Below are positions 7,724 through 46,153 of a stretch of DNA of 64,000 nucleotides, one piece after another. The notes beneath the pieces were generated by a model that was given only the letters and a program-made list of their open reading frames with translations, was not told the DNA's origin and ran no database searches. Origin of the DNA: an uncultured Thermodesulfobacteriota bacterium (GTDB taxonomy: Bacteria > Desulfobacterota > CAZCTP01); contig CAZCTP010000004.1 in assembly GCA_964501575.1 (NCBI GenBank), positions 9,402 to 73,401 of the forward strand. Reading direction: 5' to 3'. The position numbers were made by a program, and so were the translations under genes. Numbering within the stretch: the first letter of the stretch is position 1; the number at the start of each line of letters is the position of its first letter.

Positions 7724-10169
<2,446 letters not shown>

Positions 10170-27304: not shown

Positions 27305-27613
27305 CTAAATCTTTATCTCTACATCAATACCTGATGCTAAATCAAGCCTCATTAAAGCATCAACAGTCTGTTGAGTAGGTTCAAGTATATCCAGCAACCT
27401 CTTATGGACTCTTATTTCAAACTGTTCCCTTGATTTTTTATCTACATGAGGAGACCTCAATACACAATATCTATTAATAGAAGTTGGAAGTGGAATGGGA
27501 CCTGCTACCTTTGCTCCGGTTCTTTTAGCAGTATCTACAATCTCTTTTACAGACTGATCCAACAATCTATGATCGTATCCTTCTAATCTTATTCTTATTT
27601 TCTGAGTCTCCAT
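27305..27613 (-). CDS. rpsJ: 30S ribosomal protein S10
   Basis: 102 aa. [18 protein letters not shown]. Starts 3 bp after the tuf stop. Confidence 0.95.
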
Positions 27614-27616
27614 ATC

Positions 27617-28816
27617 CTATTCCAGTATCTCGCTTATTACTCCAGCCCCCACTGTCTTACCCCCCTCTCTTATAGCAAATCTCAACTCCTTCTCCATAGC
27701 TATAGGAGTTATCAAATTAACTATTAATGATACATTATCCCCAGGCATCACCATCTCAACACCCTCAGGTAAATCAACTATACCAGTCACATCCGTAGTC
27801 CTAAAATAAAACTGCGGCCTATAACCCCTAAAAAATGGCGTGTGCCTACCACCCTCCTCCTTACTCAATATATATACCTCACTCCTAAACCTCTTATGCG
27901 GAGTCACACTCCCGGGCTTAGATAATACCTGACCCCTCTCAACCTCATCCTTCTTTATACCCCTCAATAAACAACCTATATTGTCCCCTGCCCTACCCTC
28001 ATCCAATATCTTCCTGAACATCTCTACACTCGTAACAACCGTCTTAGTAGTCTCCTTAAACCCAACTATCTCTACCTCCTCCCCAGACTTTATAATACCC
28101 CTCTCAACCCTACCAGTAACTACCGTACCCCTACCACTTATACTAAATACATCCTCTATAGGCATCAAAAACGGCTTGTCCACATCCCTCTTGGGATCAG
28201 GAATGTAATTATCTATAGCATCCATTAACTCAAACACTACCTTACACTTATCACAATCCTCCTTACCACAACCACACTCCAATGCCCTCAATGCACTACC
28301 CTTAATAACCGGTATCTCATCACCAGGAAAATTATACTCACTCAATAACTCCCTAACCTCTAACTCAACTAAATCTAATAACTCAGGATCATCAACCATA
28401 TCTACCTTGTTCAAAAATACTACTATATACGGTACCCCAACCTGCCTCGCTAATAATATATGCTCCCTCGTCTGGGGCATAGGACCATCTGCAGCACTAA
28501 CAACTAATATAGCCCCATCCATCTGCGCAGCACCAGTTATCATATTCTTTATATAATCAGCATGCCCAGGACAATCCACATGCGCATAATGCCTCCTATC
28601 CGTCTGATACTCCACATGCGCTATCGCTATCGTAATACCCCTCTCCTTCTCCTCAGGAGCCTTGTCTATATCATCAAAAGGCACATAACTCGCTAACTTC
28701 CTATTAGCCAGTATCTTGGTTATCGCTGAAGTCAATGTAGTCTTACCATGATCCACATGACCCACAGTCCCTATATTAATATGTGGCTTAGTCCTCTCAA
28801 ATCTTGCCTTGCCCAT
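27617..28816 (-). CDS. tuf: elongation factor Tu, copy 1
   Basis: 399 aa. [27 protein letters not shown]. Contains an unusual [12 protein letters not shown] segment. The protein and, where I compared it, the DNA are identical to the copy at 43114..44313. Confidence 0.97.
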
Positions 28817-28826
28817 AAAACCTCCT
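27617..28826. repeat. 1.21-kb perfect direct repeat (tuf copy 1, stop codon to 10 nt upstream of ATG)
   Basis: Sequence is identical to 43114..44323 wherever I compared lines. Identity stops exactly at the stop codon on one side and 10 nt past the start codon on the other. Confidence 0.85.
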
Positions 28827-28838
28827 ATATTTAAAACT

Positions 28839-30917
28839 CTAAAATTTAAACCTACTTATAATCCCTTCTGAAACTGCTACAGGAACTTGATCATAATGGG
28901 AAAATTGCATACTATAATTTGCTCTCCCCTGAGTAATAGATCTTAGATCTGTAGTATATCCAAACATTTCAGCAAGTGGAATCTTAGCATCTATTACCTG
29001 CAAATCATTTCTTGGTTCAATACCTATAACTCTGCCTCTTCTTGAATTTAGATCTCCTATTACATCTCCCAGAAATTCATTGGGAACAATTATCTCTACA
29101 TACATTATAGGCTCAAGAATTACAGGAGATGCTTTCATGCATGCCTCTTTTAAAGCCATAGATGCTGCAATCTTGAACGCTAATTCTGAAGAATCTACCT
29201 CATGATAAGAACCATCATATAATGTAACTTTTATATCTACTATAGGATAGCCTATTAATACGCCTTTCTCCATAGCTTCTAAGATACCCTTTTCTATTGC
29301 AGGGATATATTCCCTTGGTATAGCTCCACCAACAATTTTATTAACGAATTCAAACCCTTTACCTCTCTCCAGAGGCTCCAATTCAATAAATATATGCCCA
29401 TACTGTCCTCTTCCACCCGACTGTTTTATATATTTACCTTCTGCCTTAGCACTTTTTATAACTGTCTCTTTATATGCTACTTCTGGCTTCCCAACATTCG
29501 CTCCTACATTGAATTCCCTTAATAATCTATCCACAATTATCTCAAGATGAAGTTCACCCATACCAGATATTATAGTCTCTCCTGTATCTTCATCAATGCG
29601 AACTTTAAATGATGGATCCTCCATAGCAATTTTATGTAAAGAACCTGATAATTTATCCTGATCATCCTTCGTCTTAGGCTCTATAGCAATAGAAACAACC
29701 GGCTGAGGGAAGGCAATAGATTCCAATATTATAGGATTAGACCCATCACAAAGAGTATCACCTGTAATTGTATCTCTTAATCCAACAGCTGCAGCAATAT
29801 CCCCTGCATAAACCCTTTTTATCTCCTCTCTCTTATTAGCGTGCATCTTAAGTAAACGTCCTATTCTTTCCTTTTTACCTTTAGTAGAATTATATACATA
29901 AGATCCAGAATCCAAAAATCCAGAATATACACGGAAAAATGTCAATTGTCCTACAAAAGGATCATTCATTATCTTAAATGCCAATGCTGAAAAAGGAGCA
30001 TCATCTGAAGTATTCCTAGTATCCCTCTCTCCGTTATCGGGGTTTATACCAACAATATCTGGGATATCGATAGGTGAAGGAAGATAATCTACTATTGCAT
30101 CAAGAAGGGGTTGTATCCCTTTGTTTTTAAAAGCAGCTCCACATAAAATGGGAACTCCCTCGTTATTAATTGTAATCTCTCTTAAACTCCTTTTTATCTC
30201 ATCCATGGATATCTCTTCACCATTAATATATTTTTCCATAAACCTATCATCAAAATCAGCTATGGATTCAAAAAGCTTCTCTCGGTATTCTTCAGCAATC
30301 GATATCATATCATCTGGGATATCTGTCATTCTAAATTTTGCTCCTAATTTACTTCCATCATAAATAATAGCTTTCATATTTATAAGATCCACTACCCCAA
30401 CAAATTTTTCCTCTTTACCCACAGGAAGTTGAATAATAATAGGATTTGTTTTCAGTCTGGTTCTAATCATTTCTATTGTATTAAAATAGTCAGCTCCAAC
30501 TCTATCAAGCTTATTAATAAAAGCTATTCTTGGTATTTTATATCCATCAGCTTGTCTCCAAACCGTTTCAGATTGAGGCTCAACTCCCTCGACCCCAGAA
30601 AATATCGCTACTACCCCATCAAGTACCCTTAAACACCTTTCAACCTCAACAGTGAAATCTACATGCCCAGGAGTATCTATTATATTTATTCTGAAATTTT
30701 TCCAGAAACATGTAGTAGCAGCAGAAGTTATAGTAATACCTCTTTCCTGCTCCTGTTCCATCCAGTCCATTACAGCTGTTCCAGCGTCAACCTCCCCCAT
30801 CTTATATGAAACTCCTGTATAATAGAGTATCCTTTCTGTGGTAGTTGTTTTACCAGCATCAATATGAGCTATTATACCTATATTTCTAATTCTATGTAAG
30901 GGAATAACTCTCTTCAT
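28839..30917 (-). CDS. fusA: elongation factor G
   Basis: The ORF is open to 30929 (MVIIMKRV...). [29 protein letters not shown] aligns with canonical EF-G N-termini, so I take the start at 30917. Confidence 0.93.
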
Positions 30918-30922
30918 AATAA

Positions 30923-31393
30923 TTACCAACGATAATGTGCAAAGGATCTATTAGCCTCTGCCATTCTGTGAACCTCTTCTTTTTTCTTAATTGTACTTCC
31001 ACGATTATTTACAGCCTCTACAATTTCTGCTGCAAGTCTCTCAGACATACTTTTCTCACTCCTCCTCTTAGCAAACTGAACTAACCACCTAATTGCTAGA
31101 GACAACCTCCTTTCAGCTCTCACCTCAACTGGAACCTGATAAGTAGCTCCACCAACTCTTCTAGACTTCACCTCAATCACTGGCTTCGCATTCTCTATAG
31201 CCTTTTTTAATACATTAACCGGATCCTCTTTAAGCTTATTCCCAGCTATATTAATAGCTTCATAACATATAGACTCAGCAACACTCTTCTTCCCCTTTTT
31301 CATAATCACATTTATAACCTTAGCTACAGTAATATCATTATATTTAAGATCAGGTAATGTTCCTCTTCTCCCTGCTTTTTTTCTTCTAGGCAT
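30923..31393 (-). CDS. rpsG: 30S ribosomal protein S7
   Basis: 156 aa. Confidence 0.95.
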
Positions 31394-39976: not shown

Positions 39977-40360
39977 CTATTTTATTTCTACTGTTGCTCC
40001 TACCTCTTCAAGTTCTTTTTTAATCTTATCTGCCTCTTCTTTTGGAATCCCTTCTTTAACAGGTTTTGGTGCACTATCCACAAGCTCCTTTGCCTCTTTT
40101 AAACCTAATCCTGTTATACTTCTCACTACCTTAATAACCTGAATCTTTTTATCCCCTATATTGGATAAAATAACATTAAATTCCGTTTTCTCTTCTGCCT
40201 CCTTAGCTTCAGCTGTAACTTGTGCCTGAGCTGGAGCGGCTACTGTTGGAATAGCACTCACACCAAATCTTTCTTCAAGCTCCTTAACAAGGGAGGAGAG
40301 CTCCAAAACTGTCATATTTTCTATAAAATTTATTACATCCTCCTTTGTAATCTCTCCCAT
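39977..40360 (-). CDS. rplL: 50S ribosomal protein L7/L12
   Basis: 127 aa, Ala/Pro hinge. Confidence 0.95.
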
Positions 40361-42951: not shown

Positions 42952-43101
42952 TTATTTTATCTCCCTATGAATAGTATGTTTATTACAGAAGGAACAATAT
43001 TTTTTAAATTCCAACTTATCAGGAACGTTCCTTTTATTCTTAGTTGTTGAATAATTTCTTCTTTTACACTCATTACAGGATAAAGTTATTATCTCCTTCA
43101 T
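42952..43101 (-). CDS. rpmG: 50S ribosomal protein L33 (zinc-binding C+ form)
   Basis: Hand-translated 49 codons, [49 protein letters not shown]. Under 60 aa, so not in the ORF track. Confidence 0.85.
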
Positions 43102-43113
43102 TATCAATCCCCT

Positions 43114-44313
43114 CTATTCCAGTATCTCGCTTATTACTCCAGCCCCCACTGTCTTACCCCCCTCTCTTATAGCAAATCTCAACTCCTTCTCCATAGCTAT
43201 AGGAGTTATCAAATTAACTATTAATGATACATTATCCCCAGGCATCACCATCTCAACACCCTCAGGTAAATCAACTATACCAGTCACATCCGTAGTCCTA
43301 AAATAAAACTGCGGCCTATAACCCCTAAAAAATGGCGTGTGCCTACCACCCTCCTCCTTACTCAATATATATACCTCACTCCTAAACCTCTTATGCGGAG
43401 TCACACTCCCGGGCTTAGATAATACCTGACCCCTCTCAACCTCATCCTTCTTTATACCCCTCAATAAACAACCTATATTGTCCCCTGCCCTACCCTCATC
43501 CAATATCTTCCTGAACATCTCTACACTCGTAACAACCGTCTTAGTAGTCTCCTTAAACCCAACTATCTCTACCTCCTCCCCAGACTTTATAATACCCCTC
43601 TCAACCCTACCAGTAACTACCGTACCCCTACCACTTATACTAAATACATCCTCTATAGGCATCAAAAACGGCTTGTCCACATCCCTCTTGGGATCAGGAA
43701 TGTAATTATCTATAGCATCCATTAACTCAAACACTACCTTACACTTATCACAATCCTCCTTACCACAACCACACTCCAATGCCCTCAATGCACTACCCTT
43801 AATAACCGGTATCTCATCACCAGGAAAATTATACTCACTCAATAACTCCCTAACCTCTAACTCAACTAAATCTAATAACTCAGGATCATCAACCATATCT
43901 ACCTTGTTCAAAAATACTACTATATACGGTACCCCAACCTGCCTCGCTAATAATATATGCTCCCTCGTCTGGGGCATAGGACCATCTGCAGCACTAACAA
44001 CTAATATAGCCCCATCCATCTGCGCAGCACCAGTTATCATATTCTTTATATAATCAGCATGCCCAGGACAATCCACATGCGCATAATGCCTCCTATCCGT
44101 CTGATACTCCACATGCGCTATCGCTATCGTAATACCCCTCTCCTTCTCCTCAGGAGCCTTGTCTATATCATCAAAAGGCACATAACTCGCTAACTTCCTA
44201 TTAGCCAGTATCTTGGTTATCGCTGAAGTCAATGTAGTCTTACCATGATCCACATGACCCACAGTCCCTATATTAATATGTGGCTTAGTCCTCTCAAATC
44301 TTGCCTTGCCCAT
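43114..44313 (-). CDS. tuf: elongation factor Tu, copy 2
   Basis: Identical 399-aa translation to copy 1. Preceded by four tRNA genes as in E. coli tufB. Confidence 0.97.
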
Positions 44314-44323
44314 AAAACCTCCT
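43114..44323. repeat. 1.21-kb perfect direct repeat (tuf copy 2)
   Basis: Partner of the 27617..28826 repeat. Confidence 0.85.
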
Positions 44324-44334
44324 CATTTTTATTA

Positions 44335-44406
44335 AGCCCACGACCGGGGTTGAACCGGTGACCTCTTCCTTACCAAGGAAGTGCTCCACCACTGAGCTAC
44401 GTGGGC
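44335..44406 (-). tRNA. tRNA-Thr (anticodon GGT)
   Basis: Minus-strand GCCCACGTAGCTCAGTGGTGGAGCACTTCCTTGGTAAGGAAGAGGTCACCGGTTCAACCCCGGTCGTGGGCT. Anticodon loop TTGGTAA. Confidence 0.85.
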
Positions 44407-44420
44407 AAATAATCACCCTT

Positions 44421-44497
44421 TGGAGCGGGAAACGGGATTCGAACCCGCGACCCCCAGCTTGGAAGGCTGGCGCTCTTGCCAACTGAGCTATTCCCGC
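44421..44497 (-). tRNA. tRNA-Gly (anticodon TCC), CCA encoded
   Basis: Minus-strand GCGGGAATAGCTCAGTTGGCAAGAGCGCCAGCCTTCCAAGCTGGGGGTCGCGGGTTCGAATCCCGTTTCCCGCTCCA. Anticodon loop CTTCCAA. Confidence 0.85.
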
Positions 44498-44514
44498 ATT
44501 ACTATCACTCTATT

Positions 44515-44597
44515 TGGAGAGGGGAGGATTCGAACCTCCGAAGGCCTATGCCAACAGATTTACAGTCTGCCCCCTTTGGCCACTCGGGAACCTCTCC
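44515..44597 (-). tRNA. tRNA-Tyr (anticodon GTA), long variable arm, CCA encoded
   Basis: Minus-strand GGAGAGGTTCCCGAGTGGCCAAAGGGGGCAGACTGTAAATCTGTTGGCATAGGCCTTCGGAGGTTCGAATCCTCCCCTCTCCA. Anticodon loop CTGTAAA. Confidence 0.85.
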
Positions 44598-44602
44598 TTT
44601 AT

Positions 44603-44675
44603 AGCTGGCGATGGGACTCGAACCCGCAACCTGCTGATTACAAATCAGCTGCTCTACCTGTTGAGCTACGCCAGC
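44603..44675 (-). tRNA. tRNA-Thr (anticodon TGT)
   Basis: Minus-strand GCTGGCGTAGCTCAACAGGTAGAGCAGCTGATTTGTAATCAGCAGGTTGCGGGTTCGAGTCCCATCGCCAGCT. Anticodon loop TTTGTAA. Confidence 0.85.
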
Positions 44676-44715: not shown

Positions 44716-45063
44716 TCTCTATATAACACAAATTTTCACTATTTTCTAATAAAAAATGTTTATTATTATCTATTTCTTAATATTTTCTCATAATTTCTTT
44801 TATTATAACCCTTTTTAATATATTTTCAAACTAACATTAACAAGGAAAACTTCCAATACTAAATATATATCTCCTTCTATTTACCCAACAAATAAGTTAT
44901 TGGAATAATTATATCTCAAAAAAATAAAAAAAGCAAAGACTTCTTAATTATTTTTTTAAAGTCCAGGAATAAATCTTCTTGGAAAAAGCTTCATTGTATT
45001 ATATATTATTAAAAATTATATAATAATTTTTTATAGATAGATATAGAAATAAAGGAGGGGATA

Positions 45064-45985: not shown

Positions 45986-46153
45986 GTGTCTTATAAAATA
46001 ACCGATGAGTGCATTGCCTGTGGAGCATGCCAACCAGAATGTTCTGCAGAAGCTATAAAGGATGGGGATAAATATTCTATAGATCCTGAAAAATGTACAG
46101 AATGTGGGTCATGTGCAGATGTTTGCCCCGTAAGTGCCTGTATACCTGCTTAA
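45986..46153 (+). CDS. 2[4Fe-4S] clostridial-type ferredoxin (55 aa, GTG start)
   Basis: Hand-translated (M)SYKITDECIACGACQPECSAEAIKDGDKYSIDPEKCTECGSCADVCPVSACIPA. Two CxxCxxCxxxCP motifs. RBS AAGGGGGG sits 9-10 nt upstream of the GTG. Under 60 aa, so absent from the ORF track. Confidence 0.8.
   Translation: MSYKITDECIACGACQPECSAEAIKDGDKYSIDPEKCTECGSCADVCPVSACIPA

Follow-up and report, generated by a model that had tools for sequence, protein, structure and literature searches.

G-ending codon usage confined to two identical tuf genes of an uncultured Thermodesulfobacteriota bacterium, and a possible basis in selection on synonymous sites

Codon bias in tuf, the gene for elongation factor Tu (EF-Tu), is a textbook product of translational selection. 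In the classic cases, ribosomal protein genes are nearly as biased as tuf. The two copies tufA and tufB of Salmonella and E. coli reportedly undergo concerted evolution by gene conversion, as described by Abdulkarim and Hughes in 1996. The second tuf of enterococci is said to be xenologous (work of Ke and colleagues in 2000), and Lynn and colleagues are said to have described a codon signature of thermophiles in 2002. In thermophiles, AGG, AGA, ATA, AAG and GAG are over-used and CAA is under-used (PMC6195531). Selection against non-optimal tuf codons was measured in Salmonella at 0.2–4.2 × 10−4 for each codon per generation (Brandis & Hughes 2016, PMC4786093). According to a survey of optimal codons in bacteria, C-ending codons are preferred in NNY boxes in all genomes, AGY, CGR and those Ala, Val and Thr codons that end in G are non-optimal, and GGG is avoided; the optimal codons of Ile and Arg end in Y, with AGA as an occasional choice in low-GC genomes (PMC5066170).

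We analysed a stretch of 64,000 nucleotides, hereafter the window, from an uncultured Thermodesulfobacteriota bacterium (assembly GCA_964501575.1, contig CAZCTP010000004.1). The codon bias of its tuf genes takes a form that the textbook does not predict. It breaks the surveyed rules for optimal codons, with no preference for C in NNY boxes and with AGY, AGG and ATA raised (PMC5066170).

Two tuf copies and their codon signature

The window contains two tuf copies (Table 1). Pfam domains PF00009, PF03144 and PF03143 (GTP_EFTU, D2, D3) are recorded for the exact protein sequence, the G motifs are present in the translation, and the genes lie in the conserved contexts fusA-tuf-rpsJ and tRNA-tuf-rpmG-secE-nusG. 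We discarded P0004, a 491-aa EF-Tu that carries an internal duplication and stems from an unrelated contig of a stromatolite metagenome. The copies differed at 0 of 1200 nt and shared the signature described below, as the initial annotation had stated, and both sets of repeat junctions were reproduced exactly in independent assemblies. The JGI data sets 3300023548, 3300023444, 3300038380 and 3300038381 contain the same population. Gene conversion between tuf1 and tuf2 is supported by the lack of differences. The next gene, rpsJ, is co-transcribed with tuf1; no terminator-like site was found on the minus strand between them.

Table 1. Positions of the tuf copies, their neighbours and the control gene in the window
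Feature	Position	Strand	Evidence and remarks
tuf copy 1 (tuf1; EF-Tu, 399 aa)	27617..28816	−	ORF, Pfam, codon tables; last in the rpsL-rpsG-fusA-tuf cluster
tuf copy 2 (tuf2)	43114..44313	−	Same sequence and signature; tRNA cluster upstream, rpmG-tRNA-Trp-secE-nusG downstream
Identical repeat, copy 1	27616..28826	−	Flank alignment; from SD AGGAGGTTTT (10 nt 5' of ATG) to 1 nt past the stop
Identical repeat, copy 2 (partner)	43113..44323	−	
fusA (EF-G)	28839..30929	−	Directly upstream of tuf1, ends 22 nt before it; genome-typical codons
rpsJ	27305..27613	−	Start 3 nt past the tuf1 stop; normal codons; sharp 3' edge
rpmG (L33)	42952..43101	−	ORF; start 12 nt past the tuf2 stop; normal codons; sharp 3' edge
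tRNA-Thr(UGU), tRNA-Tyr(GUA), tRNA-Gly(UCC), tRNA-Thr(GGU) cluster	44335..44675	−	ARAGORN; directly 5' of tuf2; thrU-tyrU-glyT-thrT-tufB arrangement
Promoter-like site TTGAAA-16-TATAAT (11/12 matches)	44802..44829	−	Consensus scan only; 5' of the tRNA-tuf2 unit
rplL (L7/L12)	39977..40360	−	Internal control for very high expression; without the signature

Of the Lys, Glu, Gln and AGR Arg codons of tuf, 89 ended in G and 4 in A, compared with 499 and 581 in 25 ribosomal protein genes (Fisher's exact test, p = 2 × 10−23; against fusA, p = 1 × 10−20; against rplL, p = 7 × 10−11). Thus, the dominance of AAG, GAG and AGG and of GGT and GGG for glycine, reported in the initial annotation, was confirmed for Lys (AAA 0, AAG 26), Glu (GAA 1, GAG 34), Arg (AGA 3, AGG 23, CGN 0) and Gly (GGA 1, GGT 23, GGG 11, GGC 1); Gln followed the same pattern (CAA 0, CAG 6). 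The third-base G fraction of NVR codons was 0.88 in tuf and 0.354 ± 0.060 (maximum 0.54) in 57 other genes (z = 8.8). Raised codons were AGG, AGT, ATA, ACG, GCG, CCG, GTG, GGG and TTG. The share of ATA rose to 85% in Ile and that of CTN fell to 7% in Leu, while AGT made up 67% of Ser.

Third positions in tuf consisted of 0.03 C, 0.18 A, 0.39 G and 0.40 T. The further statement of the initial annotation that tuf almost never ends a codon in C was therefore correct for the gene, but not as a discontinuity, because C3 was 0.05–0.06 genome-wide and the rarity of C is not gene-specific. Two-fold NNY codons did not move toward C (TTC 7%, TAC 10%, AAC 11%, GAC 11%, and ATC 0%, equal to or below other genes; TTT 93%, TAT 90%, AAT 89%), and ln(C/T) changed by −0.06 relative to the neighbours. 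The discontinuity is a shift from A3 to G3, joined by the loss of Leu and Ser codons that contain C, and does not lie in C3. Non-preferred codons clustered at the two gene ends, within the 11 codons at the 5' end and the 21 codons at the 3' end. Relaxed codon preference at the 5' end is usually ascribed to constraints on translation initiation. Signature loss in the last 22 codons was considered as a special feature and rejected, as it is a general tuf trait tied to a Gly-rich C-terminal motif.

Codon usage changed exactly at the edges of the coding sequence. In line with the initial annotation, fusA was rich in A-ending codons (AAA 30/AAG 15, GAA 29/GAG 26, AGA 24/AGG 11, GGA 23), and its base counts matched, or came close to, what the codon usage of neighbouring genes predicts, the largest departure being −0.13 for G. 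Usage was likewise mixed in rpsJ (A-/G-ending: Lys 5/3, Glu 4/3, Arg 6/4) and rpmG (Lys 6/3, Arg 2/2; G3 0.19). The 25 ribosomal protein genes, rpoA, rpoB, rpoC, secY and adk had an A3 of ~0.35 and a G3 of ~0.18–0.25. L7/L12 is present in at least four copies per ribosome, so that synthesis from rplL is comparable to that from a single tuf copy; rplL contained 23 A-ending and 19 G-ending Lys, Glu, Gln and AGR codons, had base counts near expectation (departures of at most 0.11) and lacked the shift in all three genomes examined. The codon shifts of ribosomal protein genes weakly paralleled those of tuf (Spearman 0.35, p = 0.009), were ~13-fold smaller and went the opposite way for Ile. No other highly expressed gene within the window had a tuf-like AAG/AGG/GAG bias, and the bias did not scale with expression there; groEL, rpsA and tsf lie outside the window and were also absent from the contig flanks, which hold only housekeeping and low-expression genes on both sides.

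The signature in related tuf genes

The closest relative of tuf, at locus L087 (86% nt and 89% aa identity), had the same bias (A-/G-ending: Lys 5/22, Glu 5/33, Arg 5/18; ATA 26/ATT 6), and the adjoining fusA was genome-like (Lys 13/6, Glu 16/6). L087 was closest for both tuf and fusA. Codon identity with the window was 0.70 for tuf (chance 0.58) and 0.68 for fusA (chance 0.51), and synonymous sites were ~70% of the way to saturation. The tuf genes of the nearest RpoB relatives, L096 (~50% GC) and L097 (~64% GC), were G-enriched as well. Expressed as a fraction of the distance to the synonymous limit, the change was +0.24 to +0.67 for G, while T stayed at expectation with −0.06 to +0.02; A and C were depleted, GGG and CGG were raised, and rplL was normal. 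The tRNA cluster upstream of tuf was also found in L096. Arginine is encoded by AGG in the tuf of the window and by CGG in those of L096 and L097; as the Arg family switches and the G ending is kept, the common factor is the G-ending codon and not avoidance of C. The enrichment of tuf in G alone thus recurs in relatives across 34% to 64% GC. The signature, its limitation to the coding sequence and its retention in L087, L096 and L097 are direct observations.

For a wider background, tuf loci were collected by an EF-Tu search of genome contigs; the matches listed were 70–79% relatives from many phyla and were reused for comparison. Among the 72 diverse loci listed, the tuf of the window ranked third in divergence from its neighbours. 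Of 78 tuf loci compared, roughly one in four was enriched in G, and the enrichment recurred in other phyla. Firmicute-type low-GC tuf genes shifted the opposite way.

Selection on synonymous sites and its alternatives

With moderate confidence, we favour a tuf that is native and under strong gene-specific selection on synonymous sites, likely at the level of decoding, with gene conversion keeping the copies identical. Support comes from the confinement of the bias to the coding sequence, its retention in L087, its like direction in L096 and L097, the Arg family switch with the G ending kept, the weak parallel shift of ribosomal protein genes, the placing of non-preferred codons at the gene ends, a depletion of A3|A1 codon borders specific to tuf, and the selection on tuf codons measured in Salmonella. 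This selection is probably decoding-related, directed at G-ending, C34-readable codons and at the avoidance of AA and A-runs, and the selected property is most likely decoding efficiency or fidelity with an involvement of C34 tRNAs. Selection would favour the G-ending codon wherever one is available (AAG, GAG, CAG and AGG, with ACG, GCG, CCG, GTG, GGG and TTG raised), would leave overall T use, and hence T-ending codons, unchanged, and would disfavour A- and C-ending codons and AA across codon borders. Dedicated C34 tRNAs, besides U34 tRNAs, can read NNG codons, and A-runs are slippery. In the rest of the genome, selection would be too weak, so that codons would drift to A and T endings under AT mutation pressure.

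Translational selection specific to EF-Tu and extreme in degree, one of the causes proposed in the initial annotation, is the best-supported class of explanation. The selection does not look canonical, given that rplL and the ribosomal protein genes are essentially unaffected and that the C-ending preference in NNY boxes, typical of classical translational selection, was absent from tuf. The genome shows no preference for C-ending codons, which puts a Sharp-type S at ~0, yet one of its genes has been driven nearly to fixation for G-ending codons. Six tRNA genes are visible in the window and none in the contig flanks. Two of them, tRNA-Gly(UCC) and tRNA-Thr(UGU), are co-transcribed with tuf2, and tuf avoids their Watson–Crick codons GGA and ACA, which argues against simple supply matching. 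In an Akashi-type accuracy test, preferred codons were not associated with conserved residues (p = 0.92). Shine–Dalgarno-like motifs in tuf were neither avoided nor enriched beyond codon usage, and five AGGAGG were tolerated.

Alternatively, selection might act on the nucleic acid and not on decoding, a G-rich, C-poor and AA-poor transcript being resistant to attack on nascent or mature mRNA, so that EF-Tu synthesis is protected when translation is compromised. We regard this as possible, though unlikely. Proposed attackers are Rho, whose loading favours RNA rich in C and poor in G, endoribonucleases or toxins specific for A-rich sequences, and A-run slippage. Base changes in tuf follow one simple pattern at three genomic GC levels, with G gained, A and C lost and T unchanged (345 T in tuf against 346 expected; at expectation in four genomes), and the NNY boxes, which offer no G option, stay put. 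Serine moves to G-containing codons (AGY and TCG, 73% in tuf against 35% in ribosomal protein genes; 100% in L097 tuf). Runs of A are scarce: A3|A1 codon borders numbered 13 against 25 expected (z = −4.4; other genes, z = −0.3 to −1.2; L087 tuf, z = −3.0), AA dinucleotides had covered 83% of the distance to their theoretical minimum, and AAA occurred 3 times in all frames against 38.5 expected. TC, CC, AC and CA were about half-way to the minimum. The breach of the tRNA-based rules for optimal codons also speaks for a transcript-level constraint.

Other features of tuf do not fit such a constraint. In L096 tuf, CGN codons, which contain C, take the place of AGR, contrary to C minimisation; GGT exceeds GGG in the window tuf, and neither the change from ATT to ATA nor the retention of TA is accounted for. 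ACA was lowered and not removed (9 against 19.5 expected), and the 55 NTA codons left would confer no immunity to A3-specific ribosome-dependent toxins. Avoidance of toxin motifs as such (MazF ACA, A3-specific HigB-type) was rejected because of these remaining ACA and NTA codons. No reason is apparent why fusA and ribosomal protein genes in the same operons should be exempt, and the opposite shift of Firmicute-type tuf genes suggests lineage-specific decoding and not a universal RNA constraint.

A non-equilibrium lag, in which tuf retains an ancestral GC-richer state, and codon choice set by mRNA secondary structure were together judged improbable. The RpoB relatives are indeed GC-richer and have G-rich tuf genes; however, C-ending codons are abundant in their tuf genes (C3 0.24–0.29) and completely lost here, which excludes a general lag, and the bias in the window lineage and L087 has persisted through the turnover of ~70% of silent sites. 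Compared with recodings that follow genome usage, the tuf mRNA was predicted to have a slightly higher stability (z = −1.9 at 37 °C and −2.4 at 65 °C). Its folding energy nevertheless equalled that obtained when the codons of tuf were shuffled (z = −0.45 at 37 °C and −0.9 at 65 °C), indicating that no specific structure was selected; the mRNA-structure constraint suggested in the initial annotation was accordingly not borne out.

A mutational origin, by transcription-associated strand asymmetry or by GC-biased gene conversion between the copies, seems very improbable. The coding strand had a window-wide skew of G over C that flipped with gene orientation and was strongest in tuf (0.53, compared with 0.30 in fusA), and sequence exchange between the copies is clear. 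Strand asymmetry would be expected to extend over the entire transcription unit and to raise T, with C changing to T on the non-template strand. Since T was at expectation, deamination of C to T was not the driver; the net change in L097 was from C to G, and the co-transcribed rpsJ and rpmG, which start 3 and 12 nt past the tuf stops without an intervening terminator, were unaffected. GC-biased conversion is expected to raise both G3 and C3, but G3 rose from 0.18 to 0.39 and C3 fell from 0.06 to 0.03, and C was depleted in L096 and L097 tuf too. The changes from TCN to AGT, CTN to TTR and ATT to ATA are not single-step outcomes.

The initial annotation had also proposed xenologous replacement, in which a tuf from another lineage kept the donor's codon usage and was copied to both loci by conversion. 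The conversion stands; the foreign origin is highly doubtful. The atypical GC content of tuf (43% against ~35%), its sharp compositional edges, the identity of the copies and a four-Cys insert in EF-Tu, common to L088-type EF-Tu and missing from L096, would agree with it. Against it, L087 shows the bias in tuf alone next to a co-diverged fusA, and at this degree of silent-site saturation foreign codon usage not upheld by selection would have faded; the nearest RpoB relatives, L096 and L097, have G-enriched tuf genes too. EF-Tu identity and mean ribosomal protein identity ranked 44 genomes congruently (Spearman 0.62), as an identity ranking and not a full tree, with L088 best for both; the named top matches of RpoB did not differ in broad group from those of EF-Tu, both belonging to Thermodesulfobacteriota and Deltaproteobacteria-type MAGs. 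The C3 of tuf lies below that of the host, its combination of G3, T3 and C3 is implausible for a donor genome, and the operon position and SD are native. Judged from these sequence comparisons, tuf is native to the lineage and not a xenolog, and the signature is inherited.

Should the selection on tuf be decoding-based, silent-site selection in slow-growing uncultured bacteria may be visible only in EF-Tu, and their optimal codons may differ from the set compiled for fast-growing bacteria in culture. This would matter for growth-rate predictors based on codon bias, and detectors of horizontal gene transfer would wrongly flag tuf. A transcript-based cause would add a new protective layer for EF-Tu expression. 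Only tentatively do we suggest that recurrent, gene-specific and GC-independent selection for silent-site G in tuf, sparing ribosomal proteins and L7/L12, implies an undescribed constraint on the EF-Tu transcript, for example, one making EF-Tu synthesis immune to Rho, RNases or the U34 tRNA modification status when translation falters.

Comparison with known systems

The tuf of the window resembles classic major-codon preference in tuf and highly expressed genes in that the bias is limited to the coding sequence, conserved in relatives, relaxed at the 5' end and weakly paralleled by ribosomal protein genes. It differs in lacking the NNY preference for C and in leaving the ribosomal protein genes and rplL almost untouched. 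The favoured codons AGG, AGT, ATA and ACG, GCG and GTG (here) and GGG and CGG (in the relatives) are not among the optimal codons of the survey (PMC5066170), and the A-ending Lys and Gln codons expected to be optimal in low-GC genomes are the opposite of those used.

AGG, ATA, AAG and GAG are favoured and CAA is absent, as in the thermophile signature; however, that signature is genome-wide and here concerns tuf alone, and AGA is avoided. The IVYWREL fraction of the window proteins was 0.445, and the tRNAs had 56–64% GC in a 34% GC genome. These values are compatible with thermophily, although the temperature estimate is inflated by the AT-rich amino-acid bias.

The xenologous tuf of enterococci is likewise unlike its own genome in composition, but the enterococcal copies are not identical and give an incongruent phylogeny, whereas the copies in the window are identical and the ranking is congruent with that of ribosomal proteins. 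As in Salmonella and E. coli, tuf is found here in the two contexts fusA-tuf and tRNA-tuf-secE-nusG, with copies identical from SD to stop. Conversion of the tufA/tufB type accounts for the presence of the signature in both copies and not for the signature itself, and its GC-biased form is contradicted by the low C3.

Codon usage of the two tuf copies

The ORF of tuf1 was identified as tuf since its exact protein matched the Pfam models GTP_EFTU, D2 and D3. The gene order around tuf1 was rpoB-rpoC-rpsL-rpsG-fusA-tuf-rpsJ-rplC. The second copy, tuf2, followed tRNA-Thr(UGU)-Tyr-Gly(UCC)-Thr(GGU) and was followed by rpmG, tRNA-Trp, secE and nusG. The two copies differed at 0 of 1200 positions, as the initial annotation had claimed, and thus carried the same signature. 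The shared stretch ran from 10 nt 5' of the ATG, with the Shine-Dalgarno sequence AGGAGGTTTT, to 1 nt past the stop codon. Both sets of junctions were recovered exactly in six independent assemblies (JGI, Logan), so tuf is not a mis-binned fragment. Direct joins of fusA-tuf to genes downstream of tuf2 were seen in L082 (JGI 3300038381; secE, nusG) and in L087, the contig with the closest tuf relative (tRNA-Trp); L097, a locus of a near RpoB relative, had the order rpsL-rpsG-tuf-rpmG-secE without fusA. These joins could be repeat-induced chimeras or true recombination between two tuf copies.

Positions of features in the window
Feature	Position	Strand	Description
tuf1	27617–28816	−	399-aa ORF
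tuf2	43114–44313	−	
Four-cysteine insert, tuf1	28244–28276		EF-Tu domain 1, aa 181–191
Four-cysteine insert, tuf2	43741–43773		EF-Tu domain 1, aa 181–191
Final 22 codons, tuf1	27620–27685		Gly-rich REGGRTVGAGVV motif
rplL (L7/L12)	39977–40360	−	control for very high expression
tgt, queA	8026–10169	−	queuosine-34 tRNA modification (Pfam matches)
Ferredoxin gene	45986–46153	+	2x[4Fe-4S], 55 aa; GTG start, G-rich Shine-Dalgarno
GC-skew sign change	~45000–51400		

Codon counts and Fisher tests confirmed the sharp discontinuity proposed between tuf and the fusA and ribosomal protein genes. In tuf, Lys was encoded by AAA/AAG 0/26 times, Glu by GAA/GAG 1/34, Gln by CAA/CAG 0/6, Arg by AGA 3, AGG 23 and CGN 0, and Gly by GGA 1, GGT 23, GGG 11 and GGC 1. 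In fusA, 22 nt upstream of tuf1, the counts were AAA/AAG 30/15, GAA/GAG 29/26, AGA/AGG 24/11 and GGA 23, and 25 pooled ribosomal protein genes used A- and G-ending codons at about 50:50. The third-base G fraction of NVR codons was 0.88 in tuf versus 0.354 ± 0.060 (maximum 0.54) in 57 other genes (z = 8.8), and the signature was significant against ribosomal proteins (p = 2 × 10−23), fusA (p = 1 × 10−20) and rplL (p = 7 × 10−11). ACG, GCG, CCG, GTG and TTG increased three- to seven-fold, ATA rose to 85% of Ile, CTN fell from ~44% to 7% of Leu and AGT rose from ~22–26% to 67% of Ser. The two-fold NNY boxes of tuf did not move to C (TTT 93%, TAT 90%, AAT 89%, GAT 89%). That tuf codons almost never end in C was correct, but this is not a trait of tuf only, as C3 was 0.05–0.06 genome-wide.

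The window has a GC content of ~34%, and its coding strand is G-rich and C-poor throughout (C3 ~5%). GC skew of the + strand was about −0.3 to −0.5 where genes lie on the − strand and positive where they lie on the + strand (45–51 kb), tracking transcription direction. Anaerobes often express ferredoxins at very high levels; the ferredoxin gene of the window lacked the tuf signature, and its A-ending usage was ordinary (K 3/1, E 4/1, G3 0.07). Queuosine-34, for which tgt and queA are present, could contribute to the missing preference for C over T in NAY codons.

The signature in related genomes

The closest tuf among 5.8 billion proteins (P0003, 89% amino acid and 86% nucleotide identity) lies on L087 and had a similar bias (K 5/22, E 5/33, R 5/18, ATA 26/ATT 6), next to a fusA fragment with K 13/6, E 16/6, A3 0.41 and G3 0.15. 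In two loci of the nearest RpoB relatives, L096 (NCBI GCA_042573375.1, Thermodesulfobacteriota; RpoB 68% identical, ~50% GC) and L097 (67%, ~64% GC), tuf was also distinct from adjacent ribosomal protein genes and rpoB. G-ending codons made up 95–100% of Lys, Glu and Gln in both, alongside GCG and GTG (each 71–84%), ACG (57–79%), GGG (43–85%) and CGG (43–68%), and C-ending codons were fewer (e.g. L097 GGC from 54% to 12%). The favoured Arg codon was AGG in the window and CGG in L096 and L097, so the G-ending codon is the constant feature, not C avoidance as such. In L088, the best locus for EF-Tu and ribosomal protein identity, the G-ending fraction of tuf did not exceed that of the neighbours by >0.2, and tuf had a classical C-ending pattern instead. 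rplL showed no base shift in any genome tested (absolute value ≤0.11). The tuf signature is thus older and wider than the window genome.

Change in tuf base counts, scaled between the expectation from neighbour codon usage (0) and the synonymous limit (±1)
Base	Window	L087	L096	L097
G	+0.42	+0.24	+0.51	+0.67
A	−0.35	−0.21	−0.72	−0.52
C	−0.61	−0.32	−0.13	−0.33
T	−0.01	−0.01	+0.02	−0.06

The four-cysteine insert, a possible zinc knuckle, was common to the EF-Tu of the window, L087 and L088 and missing in that of L096.

Selection on silent sites and rejected causes

AA dinucleotides numbered 49 in tuf, 83% of the way from the genome-usage prediction (117) to the minimum for the protein (35), and AAA in any frame occurred 3 times versus 38.5 expected. 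A3–A1 codon junctions numbered 13 versus 25 in own-codon shuffles (z = −4.4), so part of the AA avoidance exceeds codon choice. The deficit recurred in L087 tuf (z = −3.0) and was not seen in fusA, rpoB, rpoC, carB or ribosomal protein genes (z −1.2 to +0.9). The remaining A-ending codons mostly followed T (ATA, TTA, GTA), and the 28 leftover A- or C-ending non-NTN codons concentrated at the ends (4 in the first 11 codons, 6 in the last 21). Preferred codons were not enriched at conserved residues of tuf (p = 0.92).

Genome-wide, A3–T1 borders were enriched in fusA, rpoB, rpoC, carB and ribosomal protein genes (z +2.3 to +3.5), A3–C1 borders were depleted in every gene set tested (z −2.0 to −3.8) and G3–T1 borders in most (z −1.4 to −5.0). 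In a set of 80 diverse tuf genes (loci L001–L097), G-ending codons in the final 22 codons reached only 0.71 of the number predicted by the usage of each gene for each amino acid, versus 0.93–1.12 in all other 22-codon windows; avoidance of long G runs is a plausible cause. All four GGC codons of L097 tuf lay in this region.

The tuf bias is real, native and selected, and the results support selection confined to the silent sites of tuf, each change being carried into both copies by gene conversion. We lean slightly towards selection at the level of decoding. NNG codons would be readable by C34 and U34 tRNAs and four-fold-box NNU codons by G34 and modified U34 tRNAs, and NNA and NNC codons would each rely on a single tRNA species. 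With such redundancy, four-fold boxes should rank G > T > A, C, NNR boxes should favour G over A and NNY boxes should stay unshifted, which matches the observed pattern. Avoidance of A runs would fit selection against slippage, and a bias direction that varies by phylum, opposite in Firmicute-like genomes, would be expected if tRNA pools decide. Ribosomal proteins shifted weakly the same way (rho 0.35, p = 0.009). Against decoding, rplL was flat, the gap between tuf and ribosomal proteins was ~13-fold with an opposite Ile trend in the latter, the CGG and AGY preferences were out of line, and the tuf2-operon tRNAs Gly-UCC and Thr-UGU read codons that tuf avoids.

Selection on the nucleotide content of the tuf mRNA is a less probable, rather unlikely alternative. 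It would account for the very simple base balance (a gain of G, losses of A and C, constant T, NNY unmoved) and the shift of Ser to G-containing codons, and the codon-border effect resembles selection on nucleotide content. Its purpose may be a lower C/G ratio recognised by Rho or fewer A-rich nuclease or slippage sites; a rationale specific to EF-Tu would be the breaking of a loop in which low EF-Tu slows ribosomes and exposes transcripts. However, L096 tuf moves to CGN, and fusA and ribosomal protein genes are exempt.

Horizontal transfer, mutation bias, GC-biased gene conversion and mRNA structure were each contradicted by direct test. The xenologous origin offered in the initial annotation conflicts with the tuf-only bias on L087, where the fusA fragment was 83% identical to window fusA, so that tuf and fusA co-diverged. 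At identical amino acids, codon identity between the window and L087 was 0.70 for tuf (chance 0.58) and 0.68 for fusA (chance 0.51); silent sites are therefore roughly 70% toward saturation, and an unselected imported signature would be largely decayed. EF-Tu identity followed mean ribosomal protein identity (up to nine S10-operon proteins per locus; Spearman 0.62, p = 8 × 10−6, 44 loci with both genes), with L088 the top locus for both. The named top matches of RpoB (63–69%) and EF-Tu (81–83%) agreed in their broad taxonomy (Thermodesulfobacteriota and Deltaproteobacteria-type MAGs), and no ordinary donor genome would have G3 0.39, T3 0.40 and C3 0.03.

A mutational artefact is contradicted by sharp borders and a flat T count. 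The starts of rpsJ and rpmG lie 3 nt past the tuf1 stop and 12 nt past the tuf2 stop, with no terminator-like site found on the − strand between either pair, and both genes used AAA, AGA and GAA ordinarily; a mutation bias tied to transcription could not end at such borders. Relative to neighbour codon usage, window tuf had G +88, A −58, C −29 and T −1, whereas C-to-T deamination would raise T. The switches from TCN to AGT and from CTN to TTR need selection or long-lasting directional pressure. The suggested mRNA-structure constraint failed since the mean minimum free energy of 120-nt windows equalled that of own-codon shuffles (z = −0.45 at 37 °C, −0.9 at 65 °C); it was slightly below genome-usage recodings (z = −1.9 and −2.4) because tuf has a higher GC content. 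GC-biased gene conversion would raise C3 along with G3, but C3 falls in tuf.

Comparison with tuf codon bias elsewhere

Among the diverse tuf loci in the matches listed in the EF-Tu scan, 71 had usable tuf and neighbour gene sets. Divergence of tuf from its neighbours averaged 0.16 ± 0.12 bits per codon and was 0.44 in the window (rank 3 of 72 among the matches listed); a stronger bias in tuf than in neighbouring genes is thus the general rule, with the window in the upper tail. In low-GC background genomes (Clostridium, Helicobacter, Christensenellaceae and others), tuf shifted oppositely, to A- and C-ending codons. The G-ending fraction of the tuf body exceeded that of the neighbours by >0.2 in 23 of 78 loci among the matches listed, from several phyla (Rokubacteria, Synergistota, several proteobacterial classes and Desulfobacteraceae). 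L091 (ENA ERZ909567, stromatolite metagenome), unrelated to the window organism, encoded a 491-aa EF-Tu with a ~90-residue internal tandem duplication, probably an assembly artefact.

In a survey of optimal codons, C-ending codons were optimal in NNY boxes of all genomes, A-ending codons for Lys and Gln in low-GC genomes, and Y-ending codons for Gly, Val, Thr, Ala and Arg (PMC5066170); window tuf contradicts most of these rules. The window case belongs to the known kind of tuf codon bias as an unusual variant. The bias affects tuf alone and favours only G-ending codons, its host genome lacks classical translational selection, and relatives show it again whatever their GC content.
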